Source: Methylophaga frappieri
GTDB lineage: Bacteria > Pseudomonadota > Gammaproteobacteria > Nitrosococcales > Methylophagaceae
Direction: 5' to 3'
DNA length: 32,000 nt
Assembly: GCF_000260965.1 (NCBI RefSeq)
Contig: NC_017856.1
Span: forward strand, 2,550,001-2,582,000
The notes beneath the pieces are model-generated. The model was not told the origin of the DNA, searched no databases, and saw only the letters and a program-made list of their open reading frames with translations. Below, piece after piece: positions 4,842-28,723 of this stretch (position 1 is the first letter of the stretch; each line of letters starts with the position of its first letter). The position numbers and the translations under genes were made by a program.

Positions 4842-4845
4842 ACCG

Positions 4846-6063
4846 ATGAAAATGTTGCTCTTTATATTTCTGTTGTTATCGGGCCAGTTTGTGGCCGCGG
4901 CAGAAGATCATGACCATCACGATCATAAAGAAACAGAGTCAGAGGAAGGCCCGCATCAGGGTCACTTACTGCGCTCAGAAGAACTCACCCTGGAAATGAC
5001 GATTTATGAACACGGTGTGGCGCCGGAAATGCGAGTTTATGCCTATCATGATGGACAGCCGGTTAACCCTGAAGACGTAACCTTGTCAGTGATCTTGAAT
5101 CGATTGGGTGGCGAACAAGAGATTATTGATTTTACTCCCGAGCAGGATTACTTGTTGGGGGGTGTGGTCATCACGGAGCCACATTCCTATGAAGTCGAGG
5201 TCTCAGCCACTTTTGACGGTGAAGACTTTCACTGGCACTACGATAATTTTGAGGGTCGGGTCGTATTAACACCCAGACTTATTGCCGCCTCAGGTATTCG
5301 CACTGAGATTGCTGAGCCGCAAGTATTGGCAATCACCAATTCGCTTTACGGCGTAATTGCCCCTGCAGAAGATAGACAATACCGGATATTTGCGCCTTAC
5401 CCGGGCATTGTTGAAACCGTTTACGTTAACACTGGCGATAACGTTAAAAAAGGACAAAAACTGGTCACAGTCCGAAATCAGCAAACCCTGAAAAGCTACG
5501 ATATTAACAGCCCGGCATCAGGGCAGATCACGAAACGTAATGTGCAAATCGGCGATCACTCGGCGATGGCAAATATGATGGAAATAAGTGACTTAAGCCA
5601 GGTTTGGGTAGATATGTCAATGTTTCCCAAGGACATTGAACAATTACGTACCGGTATGTCTGTTGTCGTAAAAGATTTACATGGTCATGAACAAGCACTT
5701 GGCAAGATTAATTATATTGCACCGGTAATGACTGGCGGTCATATCGCCAGTGCCCGGGCTGTTATCGATAATAAGACCGGATATTGGCGGCCGGGCATGC
5801 ATGTCAATGCTGAGGTGATGGTTGAAGAAAAACCGGTTGCCTTAGCAGTTAAAAAAAGTGCGATTCAACAGTTTCGAGACAAGCCAGTGGTTTTTATCCG
5901 TGTCGGTGACACCTTCGAGGTGCGTATGGTTGAAATGGGCCGTCGGGATGAGACCTATGTGGAAATTACGAGCGGGTTAACCCCGCAATCAACCTATGTG
6001 ACAGACAACAGTTATCTGCTCCGTGCAGAGGTACTCAAAGCGGGTGCGACGCACGCACACTAA
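4846..6063 (+). CDS. czcB: RND efflux periplasmic adaptor (CzcB-like) with a His-rich N-terminus
   Basis: Start placed at ATG 4846 (AGGAG at 4834-4838) rather than the track start at 4810. The signal/anchor MKMLLFIFLLLSGQFVAA is followed by EDHDHHDHKETESEEGPHQGH. The rest has membrane-fusion-protein (barrel-sandwich/beta-barrel) character. Confidence 0.8.
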   Translation: MKMLLFIFLLLSGQFVAAAEDHDHHDHKETESEEGPHQGHLLRSEELTLEMTIYEHGVAPEMRVYAYHDGQPVNPEDVTLSVILNRLGGEQEIIDFTPEQDYLLGGVVITEPHSYEVEVSATFDGEDFHWHYDNFEGRVVLTPRLIAASGIRTEIAEPQVLAITNSLYGVIAPAEDRQYRIFAPYPGIVETVYVNTGDNVKKGQKLVTVRNQQTLKSYDINSPASGQITKRNVQIGDHSAMANMMEISDLSQVWVDMSMFPKDIEQLRTGMSVVVKDLHGHEQALGKINYIAPVMTGGHIASARAVIDNKTGYWRPGMHVNAEVMVEEKPVALAVKKSAIQQFRDKPVVFIRVGDTFEVRMVEMGRRDETYVEITSGLTPQSTYVTDNSYLLRAEVLKAGATHAH

Positions 6064-6072
6064 GGACAGATA

Positions 6073-9000: not shown

Positions 9001-9210
9001 CAACGACTAAGACCTGTATTGATGACGGCATTAGTCGCAAGTCTTGGTTTCTTGCCAATGGCCTTGAATACGGGAACCGGTGCGGAAGTACAGCGGCCAC
9101 TGGCCACCGTCGTTGTGGGCGGCATTCTGTCCTCAACGATATTAACGTTGCTGGTATTGCCGGCTTTATATTTTCTGATGCATCGGTTTAGCAAGCAACA
9201 CGCCCATTAA
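6073..9210 (+). CDS. czcA: Heavy-metal efflux RND pump, CzcA family (HME-RND, divalent-cation type)
   Basis: 1045 aa with a 12-TM RND layout. The TM4 motif DFGLIVDGAVIVVEN at aa 402-416 (nt 7276-7320) fits the HME signature DFGx3DGAx3VEN. D402/D408/E415 sit at the CzcA proton-relay positions. Confidence 0.92.
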   Translation: MVNLIVKFAIQQRWLVLLMTLFIGGLGGYNMLQLPVDAVPDITNNQVQINTELPGFSPLEAEQRVTYLVENAMAGLPNLDYTRSISRYGLSQVTVVFDESVDIYLGRQQISERLQAIRGDLPVGAEPQMGPVASGLGEIFTYAVRAKTGALRADGQSYTPEDLRTIQDWIIRPQLVKVPGVTEINSVGGYERIYQVAPKPDHLLAYKISMAELSAALQNNNQNVGAGYIERYGEQWLVRSPGQLQSLADIRNVVIRKLDDTPVRVSDVADVSLGKQLRTGAATLDGQETVLGTAMMLLGENSRIVARAVAEKLVQVNQSLPEGIVAEAVYDRTTLVDKTIQTVQKNLLEGALLVIVVLFLLLGNIRAALITALVIPLSMLFAVTGMVSNKISGNLMSLGAIDFGLIVDGAVIVVENALSRLSLAQQRFGRLLTLSERLQTVSESTREVFNPAVFGMLIIMLVYLPLFALSGVEGKMFQPMAFTVIAALTGALIFAVTFVPAAIAVFVTGRVSEKENFLMRFARRIYQPFLTIALKLPFVVTVTALIFVIFVSSLIPRLGSEFLPQLDEGDVALHALRITGTGLEQSVKMQKQLDRVIRDFDEVERVFSKIGTPDIATDPMPPSVADTFVIVKPQSEWPDPQQSKATFLSKLREAVEAVPGNKYEFTQPIEMRFNELIAGVRADVAIRIYGDDLDILAELGEQTSSVIQLIEGARDVRMEQVTGLSMLSINPQRDHLALLGLNISALQDALQMAMGGQELGLIYEGDKRFKLVMRFDETKRQNVAYLEKLPVALPENGDPDLSYVPLGEVADIEEVSAPSQINRESGKRNVIVSANVSDDRDLGSFIAEVQQKLPDQVNYPAGYWVEYGGSFEQLQSAQKRLLIVVPVTLFVILVLLFMAFKSLRDTLLVFTGVPLALTGGVLALFWREMPLSVSAAVGFIALSGIAVLNGIVMLIFIRQLWAQGKSLRTAVFEGAMQRLRPVLMTALVASLGFLPMALNTGTGAEVQRPLATVVVGGILSSTILTLLVLPALYFLMHRFSKQHAH

Positions 9211-14373: not shown

Positions 14374-14589
14374 TTAGGGTTTACGAAAGCGCACATCAAC
14401 ATGCAAAGAACCAGCAGGCGCATCTCGCTTTAACTGCCAACCTTGTTTCAGCAGGTAATCTAACGCATCTTCATAGCGGTCAAACTGTTCTTCTACTTTA
14501 CGATATTCGCCATTATCATCTACAGAAACGGTGTAAGTTGATGATGCTTTGCCGGTTTCTTGTTCAATGGTCGCTTGCGGTTTTTTCAT
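14374..14589 (-). CDS. Small hypothetical protein (71 aa)
   Basis: Internal ATG at 14589 preceded by GAGGA. Acidic, soluble composition. No family recognised. Divergent from the operon to its right. Confidence 0.45.
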   Translation of the reverse strand: MKKPQATIEQETGKASSTYTVSVDDNGEYRKVEEQFDRYEDALDYLLKQGWQLKRDAPAGSLHVDVRFRKP

Positions 14590-14759
14590 GCTGTCCTCGC
14601 GATGTGAATCGATCGGTATAGTGGAAATTAAGGCAACAAATTGTTCCACTGTCATAATGAACTAGCATAGTGTGGTGATGAAAAAAACTAAATACTTCTA
14701 TTCGCTGACTAAAACTTAGAATATGCAAAACTTTGTTTTCGGTATCGGATAAACAGGCG

Positions 14760-15377
14760 ATGACAGATTGGCAGAACAACAATTCTAATTGGGCTGGCTT
14801 GGCTTCCTTGGCATCGCTGCTTGTGATGCTGCTGGCGCCGGTAGTGTCGGCTTCACCGACTGATAGTGACGCTGATGATCGTGACCAATGCGGCGAGGCC
14901 AGGATTCATTATATTGATGATCCCGGCTTGAGTCGTGCAGAGCGCCTTGCACGCATGGAACAGGCATTTTTTGACTCGGTTAATCGCTTTGAAACTTGTG
15001 AATTAACGAGCACATCAGATAATCAAGGAAATAGTGCGCAACAGGGTGAGTCTGGACAAAACGGACCAGGAAGTGCAGGCCAATCTGGCGCAGCCAGCCA
15101 AGAGATGCAAGGCACCGAAGCGGCCAGTGAGGGGGAATTGCCTGTACCCGGAGATGGCCAGAGCCCATCAGACCAACCCGAGTCATCGACTGATTCACCG
15201 CCACTGACAGCAGGCAGTGATAACGGTGCGGTGCCTGAAGACATTCCATCCGCCAATAATGATGATGCCATTGCCGCGCAAATTCGTCGTGCCGCAGAGC
15301 TGGAGACTGACCCAGAGATTCGGCAAAAGCTCTGGAACGAATATCGAAAATATAAGGGGTTAGATGTTGTTGAATAA
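14760..15377 (+). CDS. Secreted acidic low-complexity protein with a conserved-looking C-terminal helix (operon gene 1)
   Basis: ATG 14760 gives the signal peptide ...LASLLVMLLAPVVSA/SP. Two Cys residues lie in the N-terminal part. A central S/G/Q/E/P-rich disordered stretch follows. The C-terminus is DDAIAAQIRRAAELETDPEIRQKLWNEYRKYKG. The track start at 14733 is a TTG. Confidence 0.6.
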   Translation: MTDWQNNNSNWAGLASLASLLVMLLAPVVSASPTDSDADDRDQCGEARIHYIDDPGLSRAERLARMEQAFFDSVNRFETCELTSTSDNQGNSAQQGESGQNGPGSAGQSGAASQEMQGTEAASEGELPVPGDGQSPSDQPESSTDSPPLTAGSDNGAVPEDIPSANNDDAIAAQIRRAAELETDPEIRQKLWNEYRKYKGLDVVE

Positions 15378-16608
15378 AGCTTGGGCCAATTTGCCCTATA
15401 AATTAGGTGTTTACCTGCTGATTTCGCTGCATATTTTAACGGGCTGCGCTGGAAGCGCCGGGCGGTCTGGTACAGTAGAAACGGGGCCGCAACCCGCGTC
15501 AAGCTACGATAAAGTAGATGAAAATCGCTATCTGGGTGTTAAACCTGAAGTAATTATCCCGGTATTTTCACCCGGTTTATCTGATTCAGAGGCGAATTAT
15601 GAGGAGGCGGGAATATGGCCGGAACTGAGACGTGCTGAAGCCAATCGCTTTGCTTTTCAATTAAAACAAGCGTTAGATAATCGCGATCATTTTAGTGCGG
15701 TCAGGGTGACGCCAAATAGTTCTGCGTCAGGAGATTTGTATTTATTGGGTGACATTATTGAATCAAATGGCCAGCGCGTTGCTTTTCGACTGACGGCAGT
15801 CGATGCCAGTAACCGGCAGTGGCTGTCTGAGACCTTTGAACATGAGGTGCATGAGGGGTTTTACAAAAATCCACGAAATACCGGACAAGATCCTTATCAG
15901 CCGGTGTTCGATGCAGCCGCGGAAGCCGTGATTGAAGCCCTGCTAAAACAAAAACAAAGCTATTTAACACAACTCAAATCCGTCTCAGAGATGCGTTTTG
16001 CAAATAGCTTTAGTGACGCTGCTTTTGGTGAATATCTGGATACCAGTGGCCGCTATATTGATTTGCAGGGTTTGCCAAGTGATGCTGATCCGATGTTTGA
16101 GCGAGTTAAATCAATACGTGTTCGCGAACAACTGTTTATTGATAATTTGCAGTCTCACTATCAGCAGTTCTCAACCAAAATGGACAGTAGTTATCTGGCC
16201 TGGCAACAGGCAAGCGCGACAGAACTGGCCTTGCAAAAAGAAGCTAAAAGAAAAAGTGTCTGGAAAATGCTGGGCGGTGTGGCATTAGTGGCGGCAGCGG
16301 TGGCAGCAGCGGTAAGCGGCAGCTCAGTGGATCAGAATATTGGCCGGGATGTCGCGGTAATTGCAGGGGGAGTGGGCGGTGCGCTATTGATTTCAAGCGG
16401 TTTCAAATCCCGTGAAGAAGCCAAATTTCACCAAGACGCATTAAATGAGCTTGGCGAATCCATCAATCTGGAAATGGCACCTCAGGTGATCACCTATGAA
16501 GAGGAATCTGTCGAACTGAGCGGAGATATTGAACAACAATTTCAACAATGGCGTGCTTTTCTGAATCGGATGTATCAGTTGGAAGCAACGCCAGATATTC
16601 AGCTATAG
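15364..16608 (+). CDS. Lipoprotein with a C-terminal glycine-zipper segment (operon gene 2)
   Basis: Lipobox LTGC with Ala at +2. AAGGGG RBS. Overlaps the upstream gene by 14 nt. The Gly/Ala-zipper hydrophobic pair GGVALVAAAVAAAVSGSS...VAVIAGGVGGALLISSGF lies at about nt 16270-16400. Confidence 0.7.
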   Translation: MLLNKAWANLPYKLGVYLLISLHILTGCAGSAGRSGTVETGPQPASSYDKVDENRYLGVKPEVIIPVFSPGLSDSEANYEEAGIWPELRRAEANRFAFQLKQALDNRDHFSAVRVTPNSSASGDLYLLGDIIESNGQRVAFRLTAVDASNRQWLSETFEHEVHEGFYKNPRNTGQDPYQPVFDAAAEAVIEALLKQKQSYLTQLKSVSEMRFANSFSDAAFGEYLDTSGRYIDLQGLPSDADPMFERVKSIRVREQLFIDNLQSHYQQFSTKMDSSYLAWQQASATELALQKEAKRKSVWKMLGGVALVAAAVAAAVSGSSVDQNIGRDVAVIAGGVGGALLISSGFKSREEAKFHQDALNELGESINLEMAPQVITYEEESVELSGDIEQQFQQWRAFLNRMYQLEATPDIQL

Positions 16609-16620
16609 GCGGGCAGCACG

Positions 16621-18039
16621 ATGCACGACAAACTCGCTGCTGCGCGTCAGCAAAGACGCCGCCGATTACTGCAAACGGTCAGTATGATGCTGATACTGAG
16701 CATGGCCGGTATTGGCGCTATTTACTGGGCTGCACAACCTGACCCATCGACGCCGGCTGTATCTACGCAGCCGGACAATCTGACACCATCGCAAAACGCG
16801 CTGGCAAATGAGCAGGCACGCGCTGCTTATCTTGATGCTTACGCACAATTTGACTCGACTCTCAAGCCGCAGCTGAGCAACACGGATATAAAAGCCTGGC
16901 GACCAGATCTGGCCACGCAGCTGAGTGAATTGGAGTCACAGGCTGTCACACATTTTGCCGCCGGTGATTACCTGCAAGCACAGACCGGTCTCAGCCAGTT
17001 AGTCACCCTGGCAGAACAGACCATTGCTGAGGTGGAGACCGCATTTTCAACATCCATGATCACAGCGCAGAACGCCTTTGACAATAATGACTATCCGGTT
17101 GCCAAGCAGTCGATAAATACCGCTATGCTGTTGAATACATCAGATAAAGCCGCTCAAGACTTGGCTGAACGCATTGAACAGATACCCAAAATCACGGATT
17201 TGATTCGACAAATCAATGCGGCGCAGTCTCAACAAAATAAACAATTGGAACGCAGTCTCATTTCACAGCTACTTCAATTAACGCCAGAGCGCACGGTTTA
17301 TCAGCAACGTGCGGCTGAACTTGAGACGCTAATTAAAACGGATCAGTTTAATGAACAAATCCGTCGTGCTTATCGTGCGCTTGAAGATGGACAAGTTGAC
17401 ACGGCGCAGTCAGCCTTAAAGGCAGCGAAACAGATTTATCCTGCCCGTGAGGAGGTCAAAAACGTACAGCAGGCGATTCAGCAATATCAACAAAAGCAAC
17501 AGATAAGCACCTTGCAAAAGCAGATTGCAACGGCCCGGCGTACCGATGACTGGCAAGCCGTGTTAACGCATTTGCAGGCGTTAGAAACGCTTGTGCCGCA
17601 GGCGGCAAGTCATGCCGCAGAGATGGCAAAAGCGAGGCAAATAGTCAGCCTTGATAAAGCGTTCACCACGGCCTTGGCGGCCCCTTTTTCATTATCGGCA
17701 GAAACTGCCGCCAATCAGATGCGTTCTGCAATTACCAATGCGAAACAATATCGTGCTGACAGTGTCAGCCTTGCACAAAAAACCGATAAGGTTGCTGATT
17801 TGCTGACGGCGTTAAACCAGCCGGTCGCTGTGACGATTAACTCGGATAAGCAGACTTTTGTCAGTGTTCGCGGCGTTGGTAAAGTTGGGGAGGTCATCAG
17901 TAAAACCATTCAACTGAAACCCGGCCAGTACACGTTGGAAGGCAAAAGAGTCGGCTACAAATCTAAGTTAAAAACTATTGATGTGCCCTTGGATCATACC
18001 CCGGTTTCGCTTACCTTGATCTGTGATGAAGCCATTTAA
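16621..18039 (+). CDS. Bitopic membrane protein: basic N-tail + TM + long helical-repeat (TPR-like) periplasmic region + C-terminal PEGA-like beta domain (operon gene 3)
   Basis: The N-terminus AAARQQRRRRLLQTVSMMLILSMAGIGAIYW is followed by about 380 aa that are A/Q/L-rich and helical. The C-terminus VAVTINSDKQTFVSVRGVGKVG...GQYTLEGKRVGYKSK resembles a PEGA fold. Confidence 0.65.
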   Translation: MHDKLAAARQQRRRRLLQTVSMMLILSMAGIGAIYWAAQPDPSTPAVSTQPDNLTPSQNALANEQARAAYLDAYAQFDSTLKPQLSNTDIKAWRPDLATQLSELESQAVTHFAAGDYLQAQTGLSQLVTLAEQTIAEVETAFSTSMITAQNAFDNNDYPVAKQSINTAMLLNTSDKAAQDLAERIEQIPKITDLIRQINAAQSQQNKQLERSLISQLLQLTPERTVYQQRAAELETLIKTDQFNEQIRRAYRALEDGQVDTAQSALKAAKQIYPAREEVKNVQQAIQQYQQKQQISTLQKQIATARRTDDWQAVLTHLQALETLVPQAASHAAEMAKARQIVSLDKAFTTALAAPFSLSAETAANQMRSAITNAKQYRADSVSLAQKTDKVADLLTALNQPVAVTINSDKQTFVSVRGVGKVGEVISKTIQLKPGQYTLEGKRVGYKSKLKTIDVPLDHTPVSLTLICDEAI

Positions 18040-20032
18040 ACACGCGCTTGAAGCTGCGCAAAAAAGACACCGGCGTCGGTTAGTCTGGATGCTGGTGGCG
18101 TTACTGACGACCTCCGTGGTTATCGTAACCATACTAGGGATTTCCCGTGGCACCCGTATTGTCGTTCTCCCCGAAGCGGCTTTGCCAGCAAAGATAAGCA
18201 TGACGGAAGGTGTAGGCATGGTGTTGTTTAATTCGGTTTATGCGCTAACGGACTCGCCCCGGATACGCGTCAGCGCCCTGCAATATCAGACATATGAACA
18301 TCAATTATTGCCTGAACAGCAAGGCAAACGACTTCATATCACTTTAGAACCAAAGCCGGCTGAAGTACGTTTTAGCACCGATCCAGAGGAAAGCCTGACA
18401 CGCTGGTACCTTAATAATGAATTTATTTCTGAGTCGGATACGCTGCAACAAAGCTTGTTACCCGGCGAATATGATTTAAAAATCGATCATCCTTACTACG
18501 AACAGATCAACAAAGCAGTTTCGTTGACAGCAGGGCAACATCGGCATGAGATCGTCGTATTGACGCCCATCACTGGCCAATTGCAGATTACCTCTACGCC
18601 GCCCGGTGCGGTGATTCATGTCGATAATCAAGTGATCGGTGAATCGCCTTTGACGCACCCCATTTCAGGTGGTGTTTACCAGATAACTCTCTCCAAATCG
18701 GGTTTTGATACGGTCACCGAAACGCTGGAAGTAACGCGCAATCATAAACAGGTATCGCGGGTATATCAGCTACCGGCTGCACAAACCACGGTGTCCCTGT
18801 CTTTGTCGCCTGGCGGTGGCAGCTTGACTGTAGATGACATTGTGCAGCCGGCGGCAAAAACCATTCAATTGGCCGCGGGACAAGCTCACCGGGTTGTGTA
18901 TCAAAAAGCAGGCTATGTCACACAACAGCAAATTGTGACGCCACCGTTAGGTCAACCGTTAGCCTTGAATTTTGATTTGCAGGAAGCCCGAGGTCAGGTG
19001 CAAATCATGGCGACGCCCCAAGCGGCAGTATCCATTGACGGCAAACGCGTCGGGGAGACGCCACTGACATTAACACTGCAAACTGTGCCACAGCAGCTCA
19101 GTTTTCAACACCCAGGTTATCGCACAATCACACAAACCGTGACGCCGAGTCGTGATGTGACACGTCAGGTATCGGTTACGCTGATTCCAGAAGCGCAGGC
19201 CCAGCTTGCTGAATCGCCAAAACGTTATCAGCATCCTGCTGGGGGAGAGATGTTGTTGTTTCAGCCGAATACGGTATTCACGCTTGGTGCGGCACGAGAC
19301 AGTCAAGGCCAGCGTGCCAATGAGTTTTTACATAAGGTGCATCTGAATAGGCCATTTTACGCCGGTGTAACGGAAGTCAGTATTGGCGAATATCAACAGT
19401 TTGATACCAGCAAAACCGGTAACAAAGCGGAACCGATAACGGCAATCAGCTGGCTGGATGCCGCACGGTTTTGTAATTGGCTCAGCGAACAGCAAGGGCT
19501 GCCACCCGTTTACCAATTTTCAAACCAAAAACTCATCGCAATTGACATAACAGCAAATGGCTACCGATTATTGACTGAAGCAGAGTGGGAGTGGCTGGCC
19601 AGATCAGCAAAGCGCCCGCAGCCAACCCGGTTTGCTTGGGGTGATAGCACCACGCTGCCAAAACACGCTGCGAATATTGCCGATGAGCAGGCCAAGACAG
19701 CAGTCGCTATGTACGTACCGCAATATGATGATGGTTATGCCGGCGTTGCACCAATCGGTCGTTTCTCTAAAGAGATCAGTGGATTACAAGATCAAGCTGG
19801 CAATGTCAGTGAATGGACGCATGATGTTTATCGTTTGACCCCGCCTGATTCAGAAACCATTTTTCCACAACAACTGGATAAGCGCTTACTGGCGGAACGT
19901 GTGGTAAAAGGAGCAAACTGGCAGTCAGGATCGCTGACAACCTTACGTGCAGCGTATCGAGAAGGCCTAAGCCAGCCGCGAAAGACAGTCGGCTTTCGTG
20001 TTGGTCGCTATCTGAATAAGGGAGAGCAATAA
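18026..20032 (+). CDS. Bitopic membrane protein with about 4 PEGA domains and a C-terminal FGE-sulfatase (SUMF1-like) domain lacking the catalytic cysteines (operon gene 4)
   Basis: ATG at 18026 (GTG at 18023), overlapping the upstream gene. N-terminus EAAQKRHRRRLVWMLVALLTTSVVIV. PEGA motifs include ITSTPPGAVIHVDNQVIGESPL (about 18590) and IMATPQAAVSIDGKRVGETPL (about 19005). FGE-domain motifs: VSIGEYQQF, ISWLDAARFCNWLS, YRLLTEAEWEWLAR, GNVSEWTHD, RVVKGANW, GFRVGR. Confidence 0.8.
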   Translation: MKPFKHALEAAQKRHRRRLVWMLVALLTTSVVIVTILGISRGTRIVVLPEAALPAKISMTEGVGMVLFNSVYALTDSPRIRVSALQYQTYEHQLLPEQQGKRLHITLEPKPAEVRFSTDPEESLTRWYLNNEFISESDTLQQSLLPGEYDLKIDHPYYEQINKAVSLTAGQHRHEIVVLTPITGQLQITSTPPGAVIHVDNQVIGESPLTHPISGGVYQITLSKSGFDTVTETLEVTRNHKQVSRVYQLPAAQTTVSLSLSPGGGSLTVDDIVQPAAKTIQLAAGQAHRVVYQKAGYVTQQQIVTPPLGQPLALNFDLQEARGQVQIMATPQAAVSIDGKRVGETPLTLTLQTVPQQLSFQHPGYRTITQTVTPSRDVTRQVSVTLIPEAQAQLAESPKRYQHPAGGEMLLFQPNTVFTLGAARDSQGQRANEFLHKVHLNRPFYAGVTEVSIGEYQQFDTSKTGNKAEPITAISWLDAARFCNWLSEQQGLPPVYQFSNQKLIAIDITANGYRLLTEAEWEWLARSAKRPQPTRFAWGDSTTLPKHAANIADEQAKTAVAMYVPQYDDGYAGVAPIGRFSKEISGLQDQAGNVSEWTHDVYRLTPPDSETIFPQQLDKRLLAERVVKGANWQSGSLTTLRAAYREGLSQPRKTVGFRVGRYLNKGEQ

Positions 20033-20172
20033 TGCAACGCTTCAAAAAGCCAATACGCGCTGGTGTCTCGGCGCTGATCCTTTTTTTTGTCGGCGTGTTG
20101 TTGCACAGCGCCTATGCCGATAAGCCGGTGATAAGTCTGAACTCGCCGGTTTCCTTTCCGGTGGATATCTAA
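20032..20172 (+). CDS. Unannotated 46-aa micro-ORF encoding a signal peptide plus a 17-aa mature peptide (operon gene 5)
   Basis: My own translation is MQRFKKPIRAGVSALILFFVGVLLHSAYA/DKPVISLNSPVSFPVDI. Its ATG shares one nt with the upstream TAA (20030-20032). Its TAA (20170-20172) abuts the ATG at 20173. It is below the 60-aa cut-off of the supplied track. Confidence 0.5.
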   Translation: MQRFKKPIRAGVSALILFFVGVLLHSAYADKPVISLNSPVSFPVDI

Positions 20173-20934
20173 ATGAATGAGATGTTGAAGAGTTTTGCGG
20201 CACTGGTGGTGGCCATTGTGATAGTGCATATGGTTTATTTGGGCTATATCCGACCGGAGGCCGCGCAATATATTGCTATCGGTCTCGAGCAGCAACAGTC
20301 ATTACCGCGGAATTTTGTCGTCATTGTTAAAGGTTACGAACAGGAAATTTGTTTTATTCTGATGCTGTGGGGCTGTTACTTGATAGCCAGTGCCTATCGC
20401 CGCATTCTGAAAACGCAATATCTTTATAGCGTAGATCTGATTGAAACGACGGAGTCCAACGATAGTGCATTGGATGTGAATCAGATCATTGACCGGCTGG
20501 ATACCGAAATTCCCAAAGAGGGATTGGCTTCACCATTGGTTCAGACCTTGCGGGCGGCACTATGGCGATATAGTGCGACGAATAATGTGCAAAACTTATC
20601 GGATGCTATCGAGAGTAATCTGGAAGCGCTTGCGGTGCGTCAGGATACGGAAAACACCATGATTCGCTATTTAATTTGGGCGATTCCGTCCATCGGCTTT
20701 ATCGGGACAGTCCGAGGGATTGGTCAAGCGTTGTCTCAGGCTGATGAAGCACTGGCCGGTAATATTGCCGGCATGGTTGATAGCCTTGGTCTGGCATTTA
20801 ACTCGACGCTGGTGGCGCTGTTAATCAGCATTTTTCTGATGTTTTTGTTTCACCAACTGCAACGTCTGCAAGATGGTCAAATAGTCGAAACGCAGCATTA
20901 TTGCGATAAATATTTGTTAAGACGCATTCGCTGA
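20173..20934 (+). CDS. MotA/TolQ/ExbB-family proton-channel (stator) protein (operon gene 6)
   Basis: 253 aa with a 2 TM + about 85-aa loop + 2 TM layout. IWAIPSIGFIGTVRGIGQAL and LGLAFNSTLVALLISIFLMF match the conserved TolQ/ExbB TM pair (aPllGllGTV.Gi...). Confidence 0.85.
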   Translation: MNEMLKSFAALVVAIVIVHMVYLGYIRPEAAQYIAIGLEQQQSLPRNFVVIVKGYEQEICFILMLWGCYLIASAYRRILKTQYLYSVDLIETTESNDSALDVNQIIDRLDTEIPKEGLASPLVQTLRAALWRYSATNNVQNLSDAIESNLEALAVRQDTENTMIRYLIWAIPSIGFIGTVRGIGQALSQADEALAGNIAGMVDSLGLAFNSTLVALLISIFLMFLFHQLQRLQDGQIVETQHYCDKYLLRRIR

Positions 20935-20940
20935 TTGGTC

Positions 20941-21999
20941 ATGCTGCGACGTAAACGCACTGAAGGATTTAATCTGGCGTTTCTGGATATCATGGCCTGT
21001 GGCCTTGGCGCGGTGATTCTGGTGTTTATGTTAGTCAAACAAAATCTGGAATCGGCAGCTTCCGAAGTAGACCGCTTGCAAGCGGATATTGCTAGGCTTG
21101 AACAAACACAGCAGGAGGCGAATCAGACGTTGCGTCAAATCCGAGACGATTTCAGCCAACAAAAACAAGATCTTGAACAACAATCCTCAGCGCTGGCTGA
21201 CAGACAGGCAGCGCTGAGCGCTCAGCGCAGTGCCATCAGCGACGCGGAGCAAGCACTGGCTAAACTGAAGTCGCGCATTACCGAAATTGAAATACCCGAG
21301 CAACAGGATTTAGTGTCATCAGATAACCTCAACGAAGAAAACTATCTGATGGGCCTTCAAGTGACGGGCAATAAAATCGGGATTCTGGTCGATATGAGCG
21401 CGTCCATGACCAATGAAAAGTTGATCGATATTATCCAGACCAAAAGTCGCACTAATCAGGACAAACAAAGCGCTGCCAAGTGGATACGTACTAAAAATAC
21501 GGTGCGCTGGCTGCTGGCCAGACTGCCAGCAAACAGTGACATTGTCGTTGTGGCTTTTAGTGAGCAGGCACAGGTATTGGGCGGCCAGTCAATGCAACCG
21601 GCGAACGAGACAACTGTCGGTCAAATCCTGCAATCTTTAGACAAGGTGATTCCAGAGGGCGGCACCAACCTGCAAAAAGGCCTGAATACAATCAATGATT
21701 TTTCGCCAGATCATTTGTATGTAATTACAGATGGATTGCCCACACTGGGCGAATCTTCTTATCGCAGTTTAAATCCGTTTGCCCAGTGCCGGTCGCTGAC
21801 AGGTAATGCCCAGACTATTTCTGGTCCGTGTCGGGTCAAACTTTTTCAACAAACCGTGCGAGAGAGTGGACAACGCAGTAACGAAGTTAATGTCGTGCTG
21901 TTACCCTTGGAAGGGGATCCGGATGCCGTCAATCAATATTGGGGTTGGGCTGCGGCAACAGGGGGCCTGTTAATCAGTCCCGCGGAAAACTGGCCATGA
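20941..21999 (+). CDS. ExbD/TolR-like Asp-containing TM anchor + coiled coil + vWA domain with complete MIDAS (operon gene 7)
   Basis: ATG at 20941 (the track used TTG 20935). N-terminus MLRRKRTEGFNLAFLDIMACGLGAVILVFMLVK, with D16 at 20986-20988. An about 85-aa heptad-like Q/A/L/E-rich segment follows. vWA motifs: DMSAS (21391-21405), GGTNL, ITDG. Confidence 0.8.
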   Translation: MLRRKRTEGFNLAFLDIMACGLGAVILVFMLVKQNLESAASEVDRLQADIARLEQTQQEANQTLRQIRDDFSQQKQDLEQQSSALADRQAALSAQRSAISDAEQALAKLKSRITEIEIPEQQDLVSSDNLNEENYLMGLQVTGNKIGILVDMSASMTNEKLIDIIQTKSRTNQDKQSAAKWIRTKNTVRWLLARLPANSDIVVVAFSEQAQVLGGQSMQPANETTVGQILQSLDKVIPEGGTNLQKGLNTINDFSPDHLYVITDGLPTLGESSYRSLNPFAQCRSLTGNAQTISGPCRVKLFQQTVRESGQRSNEVNVVLLPLEGDPDAVNQYWGWAAATGGLLISPAENWP

Positions 22000-22949
22000 A
22001 ATCGCGTAAAAAAACACTGGATATTTTCAGTTTATCGTTTCTGGATATCATTTCCTGCGGCTTTGGTGCTGTGGTGATGTTAATCCTGATAGCCAAACCG
22101 GATACCGCAATCTCCCAGGCGGGACAGAGCAATATCAGCGAGATGTTGGCAACCTTGGTAGGCCTTAAAAACACGGTCACCATAACGCAACAGCAAATTG
22201 AATCTGAACTTGCCAGTTTAGAGGCATTATCGGTTGAGCAGGCCGCCGCGCGTCAGGCACAAGCTGATCTGCAAAAACAACAGCAACAACTTGCTGCGGC
22301 TGATGCGGCATTAACTGACAATATAAGTGGCCTCAGTCTGGTCGAGTCACGTTTGCGCCAGGCGGCGTTGACAACACCACGTCAAAACACGCCGGAAGTG
22401 CGTTCAGAAGCCGTGGGTGGGATTCCGGTCGATAGTGACTATGTCGTTTTTATTATTGATACCTCTGGCAGTATGCAACGCATCTGGTCTCGGGTATCAC
22501 GAGAAGTCGTCAATGTGTTGAATATTCATCCGGAAGTGAAAGGCTTTCAGATTCTGAACGACTTGGGAACGTCTATGATCTCCGGTTATGACGGCAAATG
22601 GATGTCAGACACGCCCGCAACGCGAAACAACGTGATTCGCATGTTTGACAAGTGGTCAGTGGTTTCCAACAGCAGCCCGGTCGAGGGGATCGAGACCGCA
22701 TTACGAAAATATGCTAAACCCAACATTACGACCTCTATTTACGTTTTCGGTGATGACTATACCGGTGGCTCATTTGATAATGTGATTGCGCGAATTACCC
22801 AACAAAACCGGGTTCTTAGCAATGGGCAACGGTTGGCCCGCATTCATGGTGTTGGTTTTCTGTCGATGAGCAGTACCGAACGATACGGTATTTTGATGCG
22901 GGAGCTAACCAAGCAAAATGGTGGCACCTATTTGGCGCTGCCGCCTTAA
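21996..22949 (+). CDS. Paralogous ExbD/TolR-like TM anchor + coiled coil + vWA domain with variant MIDAS (operon gene 8)
   Basis: Start at ATG 21996, within an ATGA overlap with the upstream stop. N-terminus MKSRKKTLDIFSLSFLDIISCGFGAVVMLILIAK, with D17 at 22044-22046. Coiled coil. DTSGS at 22458-22472. The Thr loop reads NSSPVEG instead of GGT. FGDD replaces TDG. Confidence 0.8.
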   Translation: MKSRKKTLDIFSLSFLDIISCGFGAVVMLILIAKPDTAISQAGQSNISEMLATLVGLKNTVTITQQQIESELASLEALSVEQAAARQAQADLQKQQQQLAAADAALTDNISGLSLVESRLRQAALTTPRQNTPEVRSEAVGGIPVDSDYVVFIIDTSGSMQRIWSRVSREVVNVLNIHPEVKGFQILNDLGTSMISGYDGKWMSDTPATRNNVIRMFDKWSVVSNSSPVEGIETALRKYAKPNITTSIYVFGDDYTGGSFDNVIARITQQNRVLSNGQRLARIHGVGFLSMSSTERYGILMRELTKQNGGTYLALPP

Positions 22950-23234: not shown

Positions 23235-24047
23235 ATGAATGCCGTTAAAAAATCTATCGCCGTGATTTCGGTATTTACCATGCTCATGTTGACACATTCA
23301 GCGCTGGCATTAGAGCGTGATGATGCTGACATTATTGGCTTGAAGTTAGGCATGACTGTTGAGCAAGTCAAAAAGACAATTGCTGATTATGATAAGGACT
23401 TTGTGCTTCAGCCACCTATGCAGCGGGTTTATCAATACCGGGTCGCCAATAAAACTATCAAAACCGAACCATTTATCAGCTCTCTTTATGCGGTTGCCAA
23501 AGACAAGCAAAAAGGCAATGTTCAGATTTATTTTTCAATGCCGCCATCAGAACCTAGAGTGGTGGCAATTTCGCGTTCCCACAACAACTTTGTCCCGCCG
23601 ATTACCCGTGAAAATTATAGCAACGCGCTAGTAGATAAATATGGGCAGCCGGTTGCTACACAAAACGATAAACAGGTGAATTCGGAAAGACAAATGCATT
23701 GGTTACAATGGCATATAGGGGATAAGCCACAGTGTTTACCTTACTTTTCAGGCGGCAGGCAAGTACAGGGGCCATTCGGCACTATTGGCATGAGTAGCAT
23801 TGAAAAAGGGGAGGTGACGCAAGTCATTATGTCCCAAAAAACGGATGTGAATAACCTGGATTTAGACAACTGTGCTTCCGTGTTGACCTATCAGCTCGCT
23901 TACGACCCAGTCAATGCGGCGACCGGTATTTTAGTTGATGTGAGCGGCATCATAAAAAGCGAGCGTGAAGTAAATCAATGGATTGATTCTCTAGCGAAAC
24001 AAGAAGAAGACAAGATCAACAGCTCAACGGCCAAGCCCAAGCTGTAA
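23235..24047 (+). CDS. Secreted hypothetical protein
   Basis: 270 aa. AGGGG RBS. Signal peptide MNAVKKSIAVISVFTMLMLTHSALA/LE. No family recognised. Confidence 0.65.
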   Translation: MNAVKKSIAVISVFTMLMLTHSALALERDDADIIGLKLGMTVEQVKKTIADYDKDFVLQPPMQRVYQYRVANKTIKTEPFISSLYAVAKDKQKGNVQIYFSMPPSEPRVVAISRSHNNFVPPITRENYSNALVDKYGQPVATQNDKQVNSERQMHWLQWHIGDKPQCLPYFSGGRQVQGPFGTIGMSSIEKGEVTQVIMSQKTDVNNLDLDNCASVLTYQLAYDPVNAATGILVDVSGIIKSEREVNQWIDSLAKQEEDKINSSTAKPKL

Positions 24048-24276: not shown

Positions 24277-26484
24277 ATGGATACTGGTCTAAACACACTT
24301 GTCGCGATCGCGCGTTTTCATCAGCTGCCCGCAGAACCTGAACAGCTCGCTCACCAATATGGTGTGCCCGGCGAGGTATTTACTGACACCCAAATTCTGC
24401 AAGCCGCAAAAGCGTTAACCCTCAGAGCAAAAAAACTCAAACCGGTTACCAACGACATTGGCAATGGCATGCTGCCCGCGATTGCCAAGGCAAAAGATGG
24501 CAGTTATTTCATCCTTGCCCGTATTGCGAATAATGAAGAAGCTGAGCAGGCGAAAAAGTCAGGCGTACTGATTCAAGATCTTCGTGATGAAGCACCAAAA
24601 AGTCTGACCCTGGATGAGTTTACCGAAATCTGGTCTGGCGAACTGATTGCATTGACACGACGACAAGGCATCGGTGAAAGCCTGCAGCAAACGTTCGACA
24701 TCTCCTGGTTTATTCCTTCTCTTATCAAATATCGTAAACTCTTCTCCGAAGTCCTCGTCGCCTCTTTCTTCCTCCAGCTCTTTGCTCTAGTCACCCCGCT
24801 GTTTTTCCAGGTCGTTATGGACAAGGTTCTGGTACACCGTGGTTTTACCACGCTGGATGTGCTGGCGGTTGGATTCTTCGTTGTCGTTGTCTTTGAGGCG
24901 CTGCTTGGCGGTATTCGCAATTATGTGTTCAGTCATACCACCAACCGGGTCGATGTTGAGTTAGGCTCACGCCTTTATACCCATCTGATGGCACTGCCGC
25001 TGTCTTATTTTGAATCAAGACAGGTAGGGCAGAATGTGGCTAGGGTTAGAGAACTGGATACTATCCGTAACTTTATTACCGGTACCGCACTGACATTGGT
25101 GATTGACCTGTTCTTTGTTTTCGTTTTCCTTGCGGTCATGTGGTACTACAGTCCGACATTGACCTGGATTGTACTGGCAACCATACCGTTCTATGTCATT
25201 CTCTCAATCTTTATCACGCCGATTTTAAGAAAACGGCTTGATGATAAGTTCAAGCACGGCGCTGAAAACACCGCCTTTCTCACAGAGTCTATAACAGGAA
25301 TTGGCACGGTAAAATCCCTGGCGGTCGAACCCCAGATGAAACGCAAACTGGAAGACCACCTTTCCAACTATGTGCATGCCTCGTTTAAAAGCCAGAACCT
25401 CAATAATGTGGCTAACCAGATAGCTGGGTTAGTCAACAAACTCATGACGCTAGGCATTATCTGGTGGGGAGCGCATCTTGTAATTGATAACCAGCTCACA
25501 GTGGGGCAACTTGTGGCCTTTAATATGCTTGCCGGCAGAGTGAGTGGCCCCATCCTCAAGCTGGTTCAACTCTGGCAAGATTTCCAGCAGGCAGGTATCT
25601 CCATCAAACGGCTGGGCGATATACTTAATACGCCGAGAGAGCCAGGTTTTAACCCCAACCGTTCACGCCTGCCATCTTTGCAAGGCGCCTTCTCGATGGA
25701 GCATGTCCGGTTTCGCTACCGCCCGGATGGCCCGGTTATTCTTGATGACTTAAACCTACAAGTCAGGCCGGGGGAAGTGATTGGCCTTGTTGGCCGAAGC
25801 GGCAGTGGCAAAAGCACTATCACTAAATTAATACAGCGGCTCTATATTCCAGAGTCCGGCAAGGTCTTGATTGATGGTGTTGACCTGTCAGTGGTTGATA
25901 CTGTCTGGCTTCGTAAACAAATTGGTGTCGTGCTACAAGAGAACTTCCTGTTCAATCGCAGCATTCGTGAGAATATTGCCTTAAGCGACCCATCCATTTC
26001 GATGGAACGTGTGATTGCGGCCTCAAAAATGGCCGGTGCTCATGAGTTCATTGTTGACTTGCCTGAAGGCTACGATAATTTGGTCGGCGAACAAGGCAGT
26101 AATTTATCGGGCGGTCAGCGCCAACGATTGGCCATCGCTCGCGCCTTAATCAATAATCCTCGTATCCTCATTTTTGATGAGGCGACCAGTGCGCTTGATT
26201 ATGAGTCAGAGCGACTGATACAAGACAATATGGCGAAGATTTGTCAGGGCAGGACCGTGTTTATCATTGCTCATCGACTGACTGCGGTGCGTCAGTGCAA
26301 TCGAATTATCGTGACGGAGAAAGGGCGTATCGTCGAGCAAGGCAATCATGAAGAGCTGATTGCCAAAAATGGCTACTACGCCAAACTACACAGTTATCAA
26401 AACCACACTCCGAATCTGCACCCTGTAACTCACAACGCTGCTCAAGCGACACCTGAGGGAAGTTTGGAAGGTGCACGACCATGA
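24277..26484 (+). CDS. hlyB: Type I secretion ABC transporter, HlyB family, with a degenerate N-terminal C39-like domain
   Basis: 735 aa, collinear with E. coli HlyB: FDISWFIPSLIKYRKLF, LQLFALVTPLFFQVVMDKVLVHRGF, VARVRELDTIRNF, IAFNMLAG-type motifs. Walker A GRSGSGKST at 25792-25818, LSGGQRQR, ILIFDEATSALD. The position of the C39 catalytic Cys reads DTGL (HlyB has DYGL). Confidence 0.93.
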   Translation: MDTGLNTLVAIARFHQLPAEPEQLAHQYGVPGEVFTDTQILQAAKALTLRAKKLKPVTNDIGNGMLPAIAKAKDGSYFILARIANNEEAEQAKKSGVLIQDLRDEAPKSLTLDEFTEIWSGELIALTRRQGIGESLQQTFDISWFIPSLIKYRKLFSEVLVASFFLQLFALVTPLFFQVVMDKVLVHRGFTTLDVLAVGFFVVVVFEALLGGIRNYVFSHTTNRVDVELGSRLYTHLMALPLSYFESRQVGQNVARVRELDTIRNFITGTALTLVIDLFFVFVFLAVMWYYSPTLTWIVLATIPFYVILSIFITPILRKRLDDKFKHGAENTAFLTESITGIGTVKSLAVEPQMKRKLEDHLSNYVHASFKSQNLNNVANQIAGLVNKLMTLGIIWWGAHLVIDNQLTVGQLVAFNMLAGRVSGPILKLVQLWQDFQQAGISIKRLGDILNTPREPGFNPNRSRLPSLQGAFSMEHVRFRYRPDGPVILDDLNLQVRPGEVIGLVGRSGSGKSTITKLIQRLYIPESGKVLIDGVDLSVVDTVWLRKQIGVVLQENFLFNRSIRENIALSDPSISMERVIAASKMAGAHEFIVDLPEGYDNLVGEQGSNLSGGQRQRLAIARALINNPRILIFDEATSALDYESERLIQDNMAKICQGRTVFIIAHRLTAVRQCNRIIVTEKGRIVEQGNHEELIAKNGYYAKLHSYQNHTPNLHPVTHNAAQATPEGSLEGARP

Positions 26485-27881
26485 GGCCGTTTACCGTTTT
26501 CTGGGATGCCTGGAAAAATCGCCACACAATGGGGCAGGGCAGTAAAACACGCGAGCTTGCCGCCTTTTTACCGGCTGCACTGGAGATACAGGAAGCGCCA
26601 CCCAATCCCCTTGCCAAATGGCTAGGCCGCAGCTTGATTATTTTATTCCTGATAGGAGTTGTCTGGGCTTGTGTCGGCGAAGTTAATATCGTCGCTAGTG
26701 CCGAAGGCAAGATTATTCCCAGCGCTAGAGTCAAACAAATCCAGCCACTGGAAAAGGCTGTGGTCAAAACCATTCTGGTCAGCGAAGGCGAAGAAGTTAG
26801 AAAAGGTCAGCCCTTGGTCGAGTTGGACAGCACGCTCACTTCAGCAGACGAAAAAAGGCTCACTTCTGAGCGCCACAGTATTCAGATGCAACTGGCGGTG
26901 AAACAAGCGCTGCTGACAGCGTTAAGCGCTAACAAAACTGTCCCCGCTGAACAAGTCAAACTGACCTTCTCGAAGAATAACGCTGAGCATGATACCAGCC
27001 TTTATCAGCAATTACTCTGGCAGCACTGGCAGGATTATCAAAGTCAGCAGCAGACCCTGCAAAATACCTTGAATAAAACCCGGTTTGAGCAGGCGGCCAG
27101 TAAAGAAATTATTAAAAAACTTCAGCAAACACTGCCCATCGTTACCAAGCGGGCTGAGGACTTGCAAAGCCTGCATCAGCAAAGCTTTGTGACTGAAACA
27201 GAGTACCTGGATCTGGAACAACAGCGCATCGAACAAACACAAGATCTGGCAGCGGAAAAGCATCGGCTACAGCAACTTGTTGCGGCCGAATCTGAAGTCA
27301 AGCATCAACTGCAAACACTCGCAGCTCAAACCAAGGCCAGAACATTACAAGAAATCACCGAATACCAACGTCAAATCGCCTCACTGGATGAGGAGCTCAC
27401 CAAAGCGCAGGATTTAAATGCCAAACAAATCCTCTACGCGCCGGTATCAGGGCAAGTGCAGGAGCTTGCCATCAACACAGTGGGTGGTGTGGTAACCGAA
27501 GCCCAGCAGCTGATGCTGATTGTGCCTAATGCAGAGCAACTGGAAGTGGAAGTGTTTCTGGAGAACAAAGACATTGGTTTTATTGAAGAAGGCATGCCGG
27601 CAGAAATCAAAGTCCATACTTTCTCTTTCACTAAATACGGTGTGATTGATGCCAAAGTTACCACCGTCTCCGATGATGCCACCGTCGATGAAAAACAGGG
27701 CTTGATTTACCGAATGCAGTTACTGATGAGTAAAAACGCAATCATGGTTGATAGTCGTGAAGTGAAGTTAATGCCTGGTATGGCTGTGACAGCTGAGATG
27801 AAAACTGGGACTAGGCGGATTATTGAGTTCTTTTTGGCGCCATTGTTAAGACACGGTAATGAGAGCTTGAGGGAGCGGTGA
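26481..27881 (+). CDS. hlyD: Type I secretion membrane fusion protein, HlyD family
   Basis: 466 aa. ATGA overlap with hlyB. N-terminal cytoplasmic tail + TM (LIILFLIGVVWACVG). Long coiled-coil hairpin. C-terminal beta-barrel ending RRIIEFFLAPLL, as in HlyD. Confidence 0.9.
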   Translation: MRPFTVFWDAWKNRHTMGQGSKTRELAAFLPAALEIQEAPPNPLAKWLGRSLIILFLIGVVWACVGEVNIVASAEGKIIPSARVKQIQPLEKAVVKTILVSEGEEVRKGQPLVELDSTLTSADEKRLTSERHSIQMQLAVKQALLTALSANKTVPAEQVKLTFSKNNAEHDTSLYQQLLWQHWQDYQSQQQTLQNTLNKTRFEQAASKEIIKKLQQTLPIVTKRAEDLQSLHQQSFVTETEYLDLEQQRIEQTQDLAAEKHRLQQLVAAESEVKHQLQTLAAQTKARTLQEITEYQRQIASLDEELTKAQDLNAKQILYAPVSGQVQELAINTVGGVVTEAQQLMLIVPNAEQLEVEVFLENKDIGFIEEGMPAEIKVHTFSFTKYGVIDAKVTTVSDDATVDEKQGLIYRMQLLMSKNAIMVDSREVKLMPGMAVTAEMKTGTRRIIEFFLAPLLRHGNESLRER

Positions 27882-28105: not shown

Positions 28106-28723
28106 ATGCCATTACTTGTAGTCATTCTATTTCTAATTTTCTATATCTGGCTATCTAAAAAAGTAGTTCGGCGTGCCGTTAGTCAGTCCAAGAAACTTGG
28201 TGGTAATCATAAGCTTGCCGGCTGGATGGCTGGTATTCTTATGTACTCATTGATTCTTTGGGATTTTATTCCGACACATTTTATGCAGCAATATCACTGC
28301 GCTACAGATGCCGGCTTTACGGTTTATAAATCGATAGATCAGTGGAAACAGGAAAATCCGGGGGTAGCCGAAACTCTGACACCTATCGATAAACCTGATT
28401 GGATAAAAAACGATAATCTGACGCGAGTTCAGCTCAATCAGCGGTTTGCGTGGGAATTTGAAGACAGCATCCACCTTTTTAAAATTCACGAACGTGAACA
28501 ACGTATTGTCGATATAAAAACAGGCGAAGTACTGGCACGCAATGTCGATTTTAATACTGGGGTAGGCAATCCATATGTTTCTGCTGACTCCATCAGAGAT
28601 TACAAGTGGTGGATTAAGGTTGATTCATGCCCAAGATTTGGGAGCAAATCCAAATGGTTAGTGAATAATGATTCATTTATAGATTTTTATATGAAGTCTA
28701 AACATATCAAAGGAGTGAGATGA
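28106..28723 (+). CDS. Membrane-anchored hypothetical protein, translationally coupled to the RTX lipase gene
   Basis: 205 aa. Two N-terminal hydrophobic helices (LLVVILFLIFYIWL; WMAGILMYSLILWDFI) precede a soluble domain. AT-rich codon usage. Its stop TGA (28721-28723) is embedded in the ATGATG start of the next ORF. Confidence 0.6.
   Translation: MPLLVVILFLIFYIWLSKKVVRRAVSQSKKLGGNHKLAGWMAGILMYSLILWDFIPTHFMQQYHCATDAGFTVYKSIDQWKQENPGVAETLTPIDKPDWIKNDNLTRVQLNQRFAWEFEDSIHLFKIHEREQRIVDIKTGEVLARNVDFNTGVGNPYVSADSIRDYKWWIKVDSCPRFGSKSKWLVNNDSFIDFYMKSKHIKGVR

Follow-up and report, generated by a model that had tools for sequence, protein, structure and literature searches.

An eight-gene envelope module around a MotA/ExbB-family channel and two vWA partners in Methylophaga frappieri and other bacteria

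Described vWA transducers and the eight-gene module

The closest described counterparts of the locus analysed here are vWA transducers, reported with a seed from Idiomarina loihiensis (Mol Biol Evol 2025, PMC12204202, Fig. 4c–d). In that class, genes for vWA proteins with a trans-pore helix (TPH-vWA) are found mostly as heterologous pairs beside tolQ-like genes that have no tolR or exbD with them, and they occur mostly in Proteobacteria. The trans-pore helix is TolR/ExbD-like and carries a conserved Asp, and in an AlphaFold 3 (AF3) model the TPH-vWA pair sits inside a TolQ-like pentamer with this Asp within a ring of Thr residues, as a putative 5:2 motor. The TPH-vWA proteins were proposed to rotate in the pentamer and to apply force at the outer membrane, and no function was assigned to them. 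The locus considered here lies in the chromosome of Methylophaga frappieri, within a 32,000-nucleotide stretch (NC_017856.1, positions 2,550,001 to 2,582,000) that is called the window throughout and in which all positions are given. Eight open reading frames (ORFs), labelled g1 to g8, follow one another on its + strand at 14760–22949, and together they probably encode one self-contained, envelope-spanning machine driven by ion-motive force.

By its sequence features, the g6–g8 core belongs to the TPH-vWA/TolQ-like class as published, every feature of the description that can be checked in a sequence being present. As in the class, a tolQ/exbB-like gene stands without a syntenic tolR, exbD or motB; this is g6, which matches MotA_ExbB (PF01618) at 7e-13, with 48.9 bits against a Pfam gathering cut-off of 22.9. 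Also common to both are two neighbouring, heterologous vWA proteins that transmembrane (TM) helices tether, encoded here by g7 and g8, which overlap in an ATGA, as well as the TolR/ExbD-like helix with its conserved Asp and the conserved, presumably pore-lining Thr of the channel. The module goes beyond the description in its genes g1 to g5, and in being found also in Desulfobacterota, Myxococcota, Zetaproteobacteria and Binatia. The terms PEGA and FGE-sulfatase have 0 occurrences in PMC12204202, and its section on vWA transducers mentions no lipoprotein, acidic protein or small peptide. It was also the sole relevant paper in a literature search, which returned nothing combining a MotA/ExbB/TolQ channel, vWA, and PEGA or FGE-sulfatase.

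An earlier note on this DNA had described the eight ORFs as a new operon that matches no named system. Since the three-gene motor core had already been predicted and AF3-modelled in PMC12204202, the claim of complete novelty was overstated, and the mechanistic idea of the note is largely sound. What is new here is the fixed eight-gene module, with its PorK-like and ring-type lipoprotein partners and its invariant micro-peptide. All coordinates of the ORFs and of their junctions were reproduced, and the domains that had been named were borne out: four PEGA repeats and FGE-sulfatase in g4, MotA_ExbB in g6 and vWA in g7/g8, next to a lipoprotein (g2), a helical-repeat protein (g3) and a secreted acidic protein (g1). 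The signal-peptide micro-ORF (g5) and the expected co-conservation of the genes also held up, as described below.

A genome scan with the g7 profile over 185,579 species genomes found relatives in 397 of them, and the best 80 matches were taken as the loci for comparison. Among these 80 are loci of Methylophaga, Thiotrichaceae and Methylomonas, of Nitrosomonadaceae, of Magnetovibrio blakemorei, Sneathiella and Rhodospirillales, of Mariprofundus, and of Desulforhopalus, Desulfocapsaceae and Desulfobacula, together with one Myxococcota genome and one Binatia genome. The full module occurs in no fewer than seven major lineages, namely Gamma-, Beta-, Alpha- and Zetaproteobacteria, Desulfobacterota, Myxococcota and Binatia. 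When the window proteins were searched by tblastn, the order and spacing g1-g2-g3-g4-(g5)-g6-g7-g8 were kept in all of the loci that cover both ends of the module (58/58). Near-full-length matches in loci L004–L083 are 56–84% identical to the window protein for g6, 46–69% for g7, 46–77% for g8 and 43–76% for g2, and 36–52% for g4, 30–58% for g1 and 25–49% for g3. The recurrence of the g1–g8 block is far beyond chance. Conserved flanking genes were sought in the 58 complete loci and, apart from putative GAF/GGDEF-type genes (15 loci), none was found beyond close relatives. Because the flanks are unconserved in these loci, the conserved unit is exactly these eight genes.

The g7 family itself is wider. 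Clustered at 50% identity, the matches of an exhaustive profile search form 283 clusters at E ≤ 1e-30, a figure that rises to 653 at E ≤ 1e-10, and distant members retain the helix motif SFLD[IV]M[SA]CG[FL]GA. In cluster look-ups, its members carry only the public names “VWA domain-containing” or “hypothetical” and come from metagenome-assembled genomes.

The channel and its vWA-headed partners

Gene g6 (20173–20934, 253 aa) abuts g5, and its product has only a short cytoplasmic domain. Each of the two C-terminal TM helices contains one invariant Thr, T179 (nt 20707–20709, in IGFIGTVRG) and T212 (nt 20806–20808, in AFNSTLVAL). These fall at what we take to be the positions expected from the pore-lining residues T148 and T181 of ExbB, and presumably likewise from those of TolQ. 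At the level of sequence, g6 is a MotA/ExbB/TolQ-family subunit, and g7 and g8 are paralogous vWA proteins with an Asp-bearing helix.

As would hold for g6–g8, ZorAB of the Zorya system is a 5:2 motor of the MotA family that is not flagellar and has an unusual output module, and the earlier note had listed a Zorya-like anti-phage sensor among the possible functions; periplasmic parts would detect perturbation of the envelope by a phage and signal through the MotA-like channel. Matches of g6 to ZorA models were indeed found (PADLOC ZorA2, 9.4e-5; NCBIfam ZorA_2/ZorA_4, ~0.02), but they are weak and partial: the PADLOC match scores 19.6 bits and covers only profile positions 43–126 of 505, the NCBIfam matches reach 13.5–13.7 bits against cut-offs of 100–500, and there is no other meaningful PADLOC match in the module. 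Zorya has a long cytoplasmic ZorA tail, ZorC/D effectors and a peptidoglycan-binding ZorB, whereas here the channel subunit is minimal and has no such tail, the extra mass of the module is all periplasmic, and neither a ZorB peptidoglycan-binding domain nor a ZorC/D/E-like or other cytoplasmic effector is encoded. The flanks consist of unconserved housekeeping genes with no link to defence, no match to g7 was found on plasmids or phages by tblastn, and g6–g8 remain 46–56% identical between the most distant lineages sampled, unlike fast-evolving defence genes. An anti-phage sensor of this kind is therefore extremely improbable.

Gene g7 (20941–21999, 352 aa) begins after a 6-nt gap and its product matches VWA_2 in Pfam (8.9e-9). 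Its TM helix, FNLAFLDIMACGLGAVILVFML, bears Asp16 (nt 20986–20988), which is nearly invariant in the orthologue alignment. A coiled-coil stalk (~36–120) follows, and then a vWA head with a complete metal-ion-dependent adhesion site (MIDAS), comprising D151xS153xS155 (nt 21391–21405), T242 and D264. The head also contains an invariant pair, Cys283/Cys297, which fits a periplasmic location. Matches of g7 to PADLOC LmuB/JetC and to NCBIfam SMC models were dismissed as coiled-coil composition.

The product of g8 (21996–22949, 317 aa) is by itself below Pfam significance (VWA_2, E = 0.49), and weak VWA_2 matches are present in 20 of 21 orthologues. Its paralogy with g7 extends over TM helix, stalk and DxSxS motif (BLASTP 1e-8; hhalign 99%). 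The TM helix of g8, FSLSFLDIISCGFGAVVMLILI, bears the invariant Asp17 (nt 22044–22046) and leads into a single long helix (41–123) and a divergent vWA head with D155xS157xS159 (nt 22458–22472) and GDDY. In an AlphaFold2 model built from an alignment seeded with g7 paralogues, in which the predicted local distance difference test (pLDDT) of the head is 70–86, Foldseek matched this head to vWA/integrin I domains only (ANTXR2, integrin I).

Both Asp residues thus stand in an ExbD/TolR-like “FLDI” context, which resembles what we take to be the LDV context of ExbD Asp25 and TolR Asp23, and neither TM helix contains a His or an SHLS motif. The two heads keep DxSxS and the downstream metal-site residues. 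From membrane to head, g7 and g8 have helices of nearly equal length (~85 residues), which would suit a stalk formed by a heterodimeric coiled coil. The earlier note had expected partners with a single Asp-bearing helix for the channel, and g7 and g8 each carry such a helix, as the “2” of a 5:2 motor would. No ExbD/TolR, MotB or OmpA family matched any of the eight products in Pfam and NCBIfam (E ≤ 0.1). The other absences that the note had listed (TonB, TolA/B/Pal, flagellar parts, ZorB–D and MoxR/DUF58) are borne out in the same way, none of these having a match on any product.

Two membrane-anchored vWA proteins and a TPR protein in one operon recall BatA/BatB/BatC of the Bat (aerotolerance)/MoxR-vWA systems, and vWA MIDAS sites bind metals. 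The module could accordingly be taken for a static periplasmic vWA/TPR scaffold, or for a complex that binds metals or ligands, with the MotA-like protein as a mere ion channel or assembly platform. This is very unlikely. The MoxR AAA+ ATPase and DUF58 are absent from both the module and the window flanks, and BatA/B have no Asp-bearing ExbD-like helix and are unlinked to a MotA-family gene. Moreover, the Asp kept, invariantly or nearly so, in both helices and the invariant Thr of g6, across phyla, are hallmarks of ion-coupled 5:2 motors which a scaffold would have no reason to conserve. The same 5:1:1 logic that would apply to g6, g7 and g8 is seen in the Agl–Glt machinery of Myxococcus, where the TolQ-like AglR has two different TolR-like partners, AglQ and AglS, and where a vWA domain also serves as a force-bearing adhesin (CglB). 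CglB, however, is a lipoprotein of the outer membrane in its own right, with no fusion to the motor B subunits, and Glt comprises many further parts, outer-membrane barrels among them, which the module lacks.

The envelope proteins g1 to g5 and the proposed machine

Gene g4 (18026–20032; alternative GTG start at 18023) overlaps g3 and encodes a periplasmic protein anchored in the inner membrane, with Pfam matches to PEGA (1.4e-29) and FGE-sulfatase (1e-29). Four mutually homologous PEGA repeats occupy aa 112–392 (nt 18356–19198; hhalign probability 90–98%), and an FGE-sulfatase-fold domain occupies aa 419–660 (nt 19277–20002). By sequence, the nearest solved structures are PorK chains (9myj_B/9mzu_A, ~3e-8), followed by FGE and PvdO, and the GldK model TIGR03525 matches the FGE domain only, at 9e-18 and 64.8 bits against a cut-off of 350. 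The sole Cys of g4, at position 484, is outside the FGE active-site segment; the corresponding stretch, placed from what we take to be the catalytic Cys positions of FGE in its C-terminal active-site segment, reads KGANWQSGSLTTLRAAYR. A catalytic FGE was rejected for g4 since the catalytic Cys pair is absent and, judged from these residues, the domain is a non-enzymatic fold like that of PorK/GldK.

Upstream of it, after a 12-nt gap from g2, g3 (16621–18039) encodes a protein with an N-in TM anchor and periplasmic TPR-like helical repeats (4.8e-6 for its profile against the consensus TPR). It ends in a strongly conserved beta domain with the pattern SD..T.V.VRGVGKVG....K.IQLKPG.YTFEG.R.GFKSKL, for which hhalign against PEGA gave a probability of 22% at best.

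The parallel that the earlier note had drawn with PorK, PorL and PorM of type IX secretion (the T9SS) stands as one of architecture, with PorK chains as the closest solved relatives of g4 and with different protein families. In the T9SS and in gliding, a GldL5–GldM2 motor is set on a PorK/GldK–PorN/GldN ring, much as a pentameric channel would here surround a dimer that reaches towards the outer membrane; both also have an FGE-sulfatase-fold partner, PorK being the best solved match of g4, and an outer-membrane lipoprotein. In contrast, g6 is of the MotA_ExbB family (PF01618) and not GldL, g7 and g8 combine a coiled coil with vWA and are not GldM, and g4 is TM-anchored in the inner membrane, has four PEGA repeats and remains far below the GldK cut-off. 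GldL, GldM and GldN had no match on any product in NCBIfam, the module has no GldN, SprA or T9SS cargo domain, and the T9SS is a system of Bacteroidota. The module is analogous in layout to GldL5–GldM2 on a GldK/N ring and is not a member of the T9SS.

The most unexpected element of the module is g5 (20032–20172), a 46-codon micro-ORF whose start is joined to the end of g4 in a TAATG arrangement, with nt 20032 common to both genes. Its product (46 aa) has a variable, signal-peptide-like N-terminus that ends in A-x-A (AYA|DK here), and a near-invariant C-terminal tail, ISLNSPVSFPVDI (nt 20131–20169), directly followed by the stop codon. The consensus of the tail is ISLNSP[VTA]SFPVDI from Gammaproteobacteria to Binatia. 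An equivalent ORF with the same tail is found between g4 and g6 in 73 of the 73 loci scanned among L004–L083, two further loci having been left out by the gap filter, and in L001/L002 a called gene of 50 aa is at the same position. Such conservation of its sequence marks the micro-ORF as a genuine gene. Cleavage by signal peptidase at A-x-A would leave a mature g5 that is predicted to be a periplasmic peptide of ~17 residues. This peptide may occupy a vWA metal site as a ligand, by way of its terminal Asp or its carboxylate; alternatively, it may add a strand to a partner domain, or act as a plug or a regulator. Its binding by the FGE fold of g4 may also be considered. The S-F-P-V-D of g5 is loosely like the FGE substrate motif C/S-x-P-x-R, and g4 has no catalytic cysteines; a role of g4 as an enzyme that modifies the S-x-P-x-D motif of the peptide was ruled out by the absence of the FGE Cys pair.

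By analogy with type IX secretion, the module could also be dedicated to the export or surface display of its own small products, g1 and/or g5. Both have signal peptides, strict co-conservation and near-invariant C-terminal motifs, and the relation of g4 to PorK chains of the T9SS ring, with the GldK model match at 9e-18, points in the same direction. Pfam and NCBIfam returned no SprA-like or other outer-membrane translocon, no PorL/M/N homologue and no T9SS C-terminal sorting domain, however, and the GldK score is far under its cut-off, so that such an export system is quite unlikely.

The outer-membrane lipoprotein of the module is encoded by g2 (15364–16608, 414 aa; annotated Q7C_2574), which overlaps g1 by 14 nt. 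It has a lipobox, LTGC, with an invariant Cys28 (nt 15445–15447) and Ala at +2. An alpha/beta domain (~55–195) is followed by a helix of ~60 residues, a Gly-zipper (298–347) and a small C-terminal alpha/beta domain. With an AlphaFold2 model (pLDDT 69.8), Foldseek related the N-terminal domain to the Vibrio LPHT ring (8z5n, 1.7e-4), FlgT, LptE, the TolB N-domain, PelC and PqiC. Lipoproteins of the periplasm or the outer membrane make up most of these fold relatives, and rings or plugs are formed by several of them. The public names of g2 orthologues (P0356, P0358, P0334, P0339) disagree, ranging from “microcompartment protein CcmK/EutM” and “outer membrane lipoprotein SlyB” (JGI) to “hypothetical”; the SlyB name reflects the Gly-zipper, and the CcmK/EutM name finds no support in the fold search.

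The first gene, g1 (14760–15377, 205 aa; alternative TTG start at 14733), encodes a secreted or periplasmic acidic protein (isoelectric point 4.07) with a signal peptide, invariant Cys residues at 44 and 80, and a low-complexity linker of Gly, Ser and acidic residues. It has a conserved C-terminal motif, PEDIP.A.NDD..AAQIR.AAE.E.DP....LWNEYRKYKGL, and no Pfam or NCBIfam family. Together with the signal peptides and TM anchors, the invariant Cys pairs of g1 and g7 support a periplasmic location.

The module can also be compared with ExbBD–TonB and TolQR–TolA–TolB–Pal. Like these systems, it has a channel of the PF01618 family and a partner helix whose Asp lies in an “LDV/LDI” context, and it would couple the proton motive force (PMF) to the outer membrane; the N-domain of g2 is moreover similar in fold to that of TolB. 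The module could be a linear force transducer or tether of this kind, in which g6–g7–g8 would pull or tether g2 and so stabilise the outer membrane at division sites or under stress, with no ring and no rotary output, and with g3, g4, g1 and g5 as periplasmic adaptors. The tensile force at the outer membrane that is proposed for TPH-vWA proteins (PMC12204202), the resemblance of the g2 N-domain to LptE as well as to TolB, and the lack of an outer-membrane channel in the module all favour such a tether. The module differs from the Ton and Tol systems in that the vWA proteins stand in for ExbD/TolR, and in that a TonB/TolA-type third subunit bearing an SHLS motif and a TonB-dependent transporter are both missing. 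Against a tether, Pfam and NCBIfam found no TonB/TolA C-terminal domain, TolB beta-propeller, Pal or OmpA-like peptidoglycan anchor, and the PorK-like g4 with its four PEGA repeats and the secreted peptide have no Tol or Ton counterpart. The presence of relatives in 397 of 185,579 species genomes also indicates an accessory rather than a core envelope function. A purely Tol- or Ton-like tether is thus unlikely.

In the ion-driven machine that is preferred here, five g6 subunits would surround a g7/g8 heterodimer as a 5:1:1 stator-type motor, and ion flow through the Asp/Thr site would turn or pull the coiled-coil stalk. The two vWA heads would be carried ~15–17 nm into the periplasm, where they would engage an acidic ligand by way of their metal sites and relay force to the other products of the operon, g2, g4, g3, g1 and g5. 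A candidate recipient of this force is g2, with a fold common to ring- and plug-forming lipoproteins (FlgT, LptE, PelC, TolB N-domain) and a membrane-inserting Gly-zipper. As its output, the machine could move or remodel a component of the outer membrane or of the surface, or it could stabilise the envelope in a Tol-like manner.

Several points weigh against this machine as drawn. We infer its stoichiometry, its rotation and every protein–protein contact, and the class assignment of g6–g8 follows the published description rather than a comparison with the Idiomarina loihiensis seed sequences. Sequence and profile searches of g6 against chains of the Protein Data Bank gave no significant match to solved ExbB, TolQ or MotA. 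The seeding of its alignment with g7 paralogues makes the g8 model lean towards a vWA fold. The module also contains no outer-membrane beta-barrel and no recognisable substrate, which leaves a secretion or gliding output without a visible exit route. A bolder form of the proposal is put forward only tentatively, as possible but rather doubtful. It would make the module the proteobacterial counterpart of the T9SS/gliding core, in which a PMF-driven MotA-family pentamer turns a heterodimeric shaft with two metal-dependent vWA “grippers” against an assembly of the PorK-like protein and the ring-type lipoprotein. The 17-mer with ISLNSPxSFPVDI would be an essential small subunit or the ligand of a vWA metal site, and the function would be unlike those of flagella, Ton, Tol, gliding, the T9SS or Zorya.

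Surroundings and significance of the module

Promoter and terminator scans were at background level, and Rfam and tRNA scans of the window were empty. Because these scans gave nothing, the operon boundaries rest on gene spacing and synteny alone. The upstream flank in the window contains an RND efflux system, MntP, Fae, MscS, TrkA and a dienelactone hydrolase, which are unrelated housekeeping and transport genes; the downstream flank contains a 270-aa protein without a family and then a C39-ABC/HlyD exporter.

Directly upstream of g1 and divergent from it, a 93-aa acidic ORF without a Pfam family is found on the minus strand (14374–14655). Homologues with 52–57% identity are at the same position in three close Methylophaga loci (L006–L008), others are ~6.5 kb downstream of the module in L024 (39%) and L027 (52%), and most other loci have none. 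The efflux system (3555–9210), of the CzcCBA/CusCBA type (OEP, HlyD_D23/CzcB and AcrB families), is ~5.5 kb upstream of the module. A similar RND system is found in a Crenotrichaceae metagenome-assembled genome (L001/L002, 1–3540), ~1 kb upstream of the module, divergent, with one 95-aa gene between. In the 58-locus survey, the flank clusters conserved within 3.5 kb include no efflux-type family, and the proximity may be a coincidence. Putative GAF/GGDEF diguanylate cyclase genes, a label judged from the N-terminal sequence of one example and not from a domain search, are within 3.5 kb on either side of the module in 15 of the 58 loci (e.g., L006, 663–1778, minus strand). In the window, a 7TMR-DISM/GGDEF gene is at 14–970, far from the module. 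The family is very common, and these neighbours are probably due to chance, a link to c-di-GMP being the less likely reading.

On the 3′ side, the 270-aa ORF (23235–24047) between g8 and the ABC exporter has a hydrophobic N-terminal segment and no Pfam family, and at other loci it is not a conserved downstream neighbour of the module. The exporter genes (24277–27881) encode a C39-peptidase ABC transporter and an HlyD-family protein, in a type I secretion-like arrangement. They are followed at about 28700–32000 by an ORF of more than 1,099 aa, which runs off the window end, has an N-terminal GHSLGG lipase-type motif, and sits in a low-GC region (0.39–0.44) with strong GC skew (up to 0.33). It probably encodes a large secreted substrate. 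Neither the C39-ABC/HlyD genes nor this ORF is conserved beside the eight-gene module in other loci.

Ion-driven 5:2 motors (MotAB, ExbBD, TolQR, GldLM and ZorAB) form a small set, each with a very different output, and a class with vWA adhesion domains as the “2” subunits is known so far from computational prediction only. Here the motor is never alone; it is part of a fixed inner-to-outer-membrane module in ~400 species genomes, with motor proteins that are 46–84% identical across phyla. The products of g1 to g5 are concrete candidates for the load on which a vWA-headed motor would act. The hosts of the module include cultivable Methylophaga and Magnetovibrio, so that the question of what vWA-headed motors pull or turn becomes experimentally approachable.

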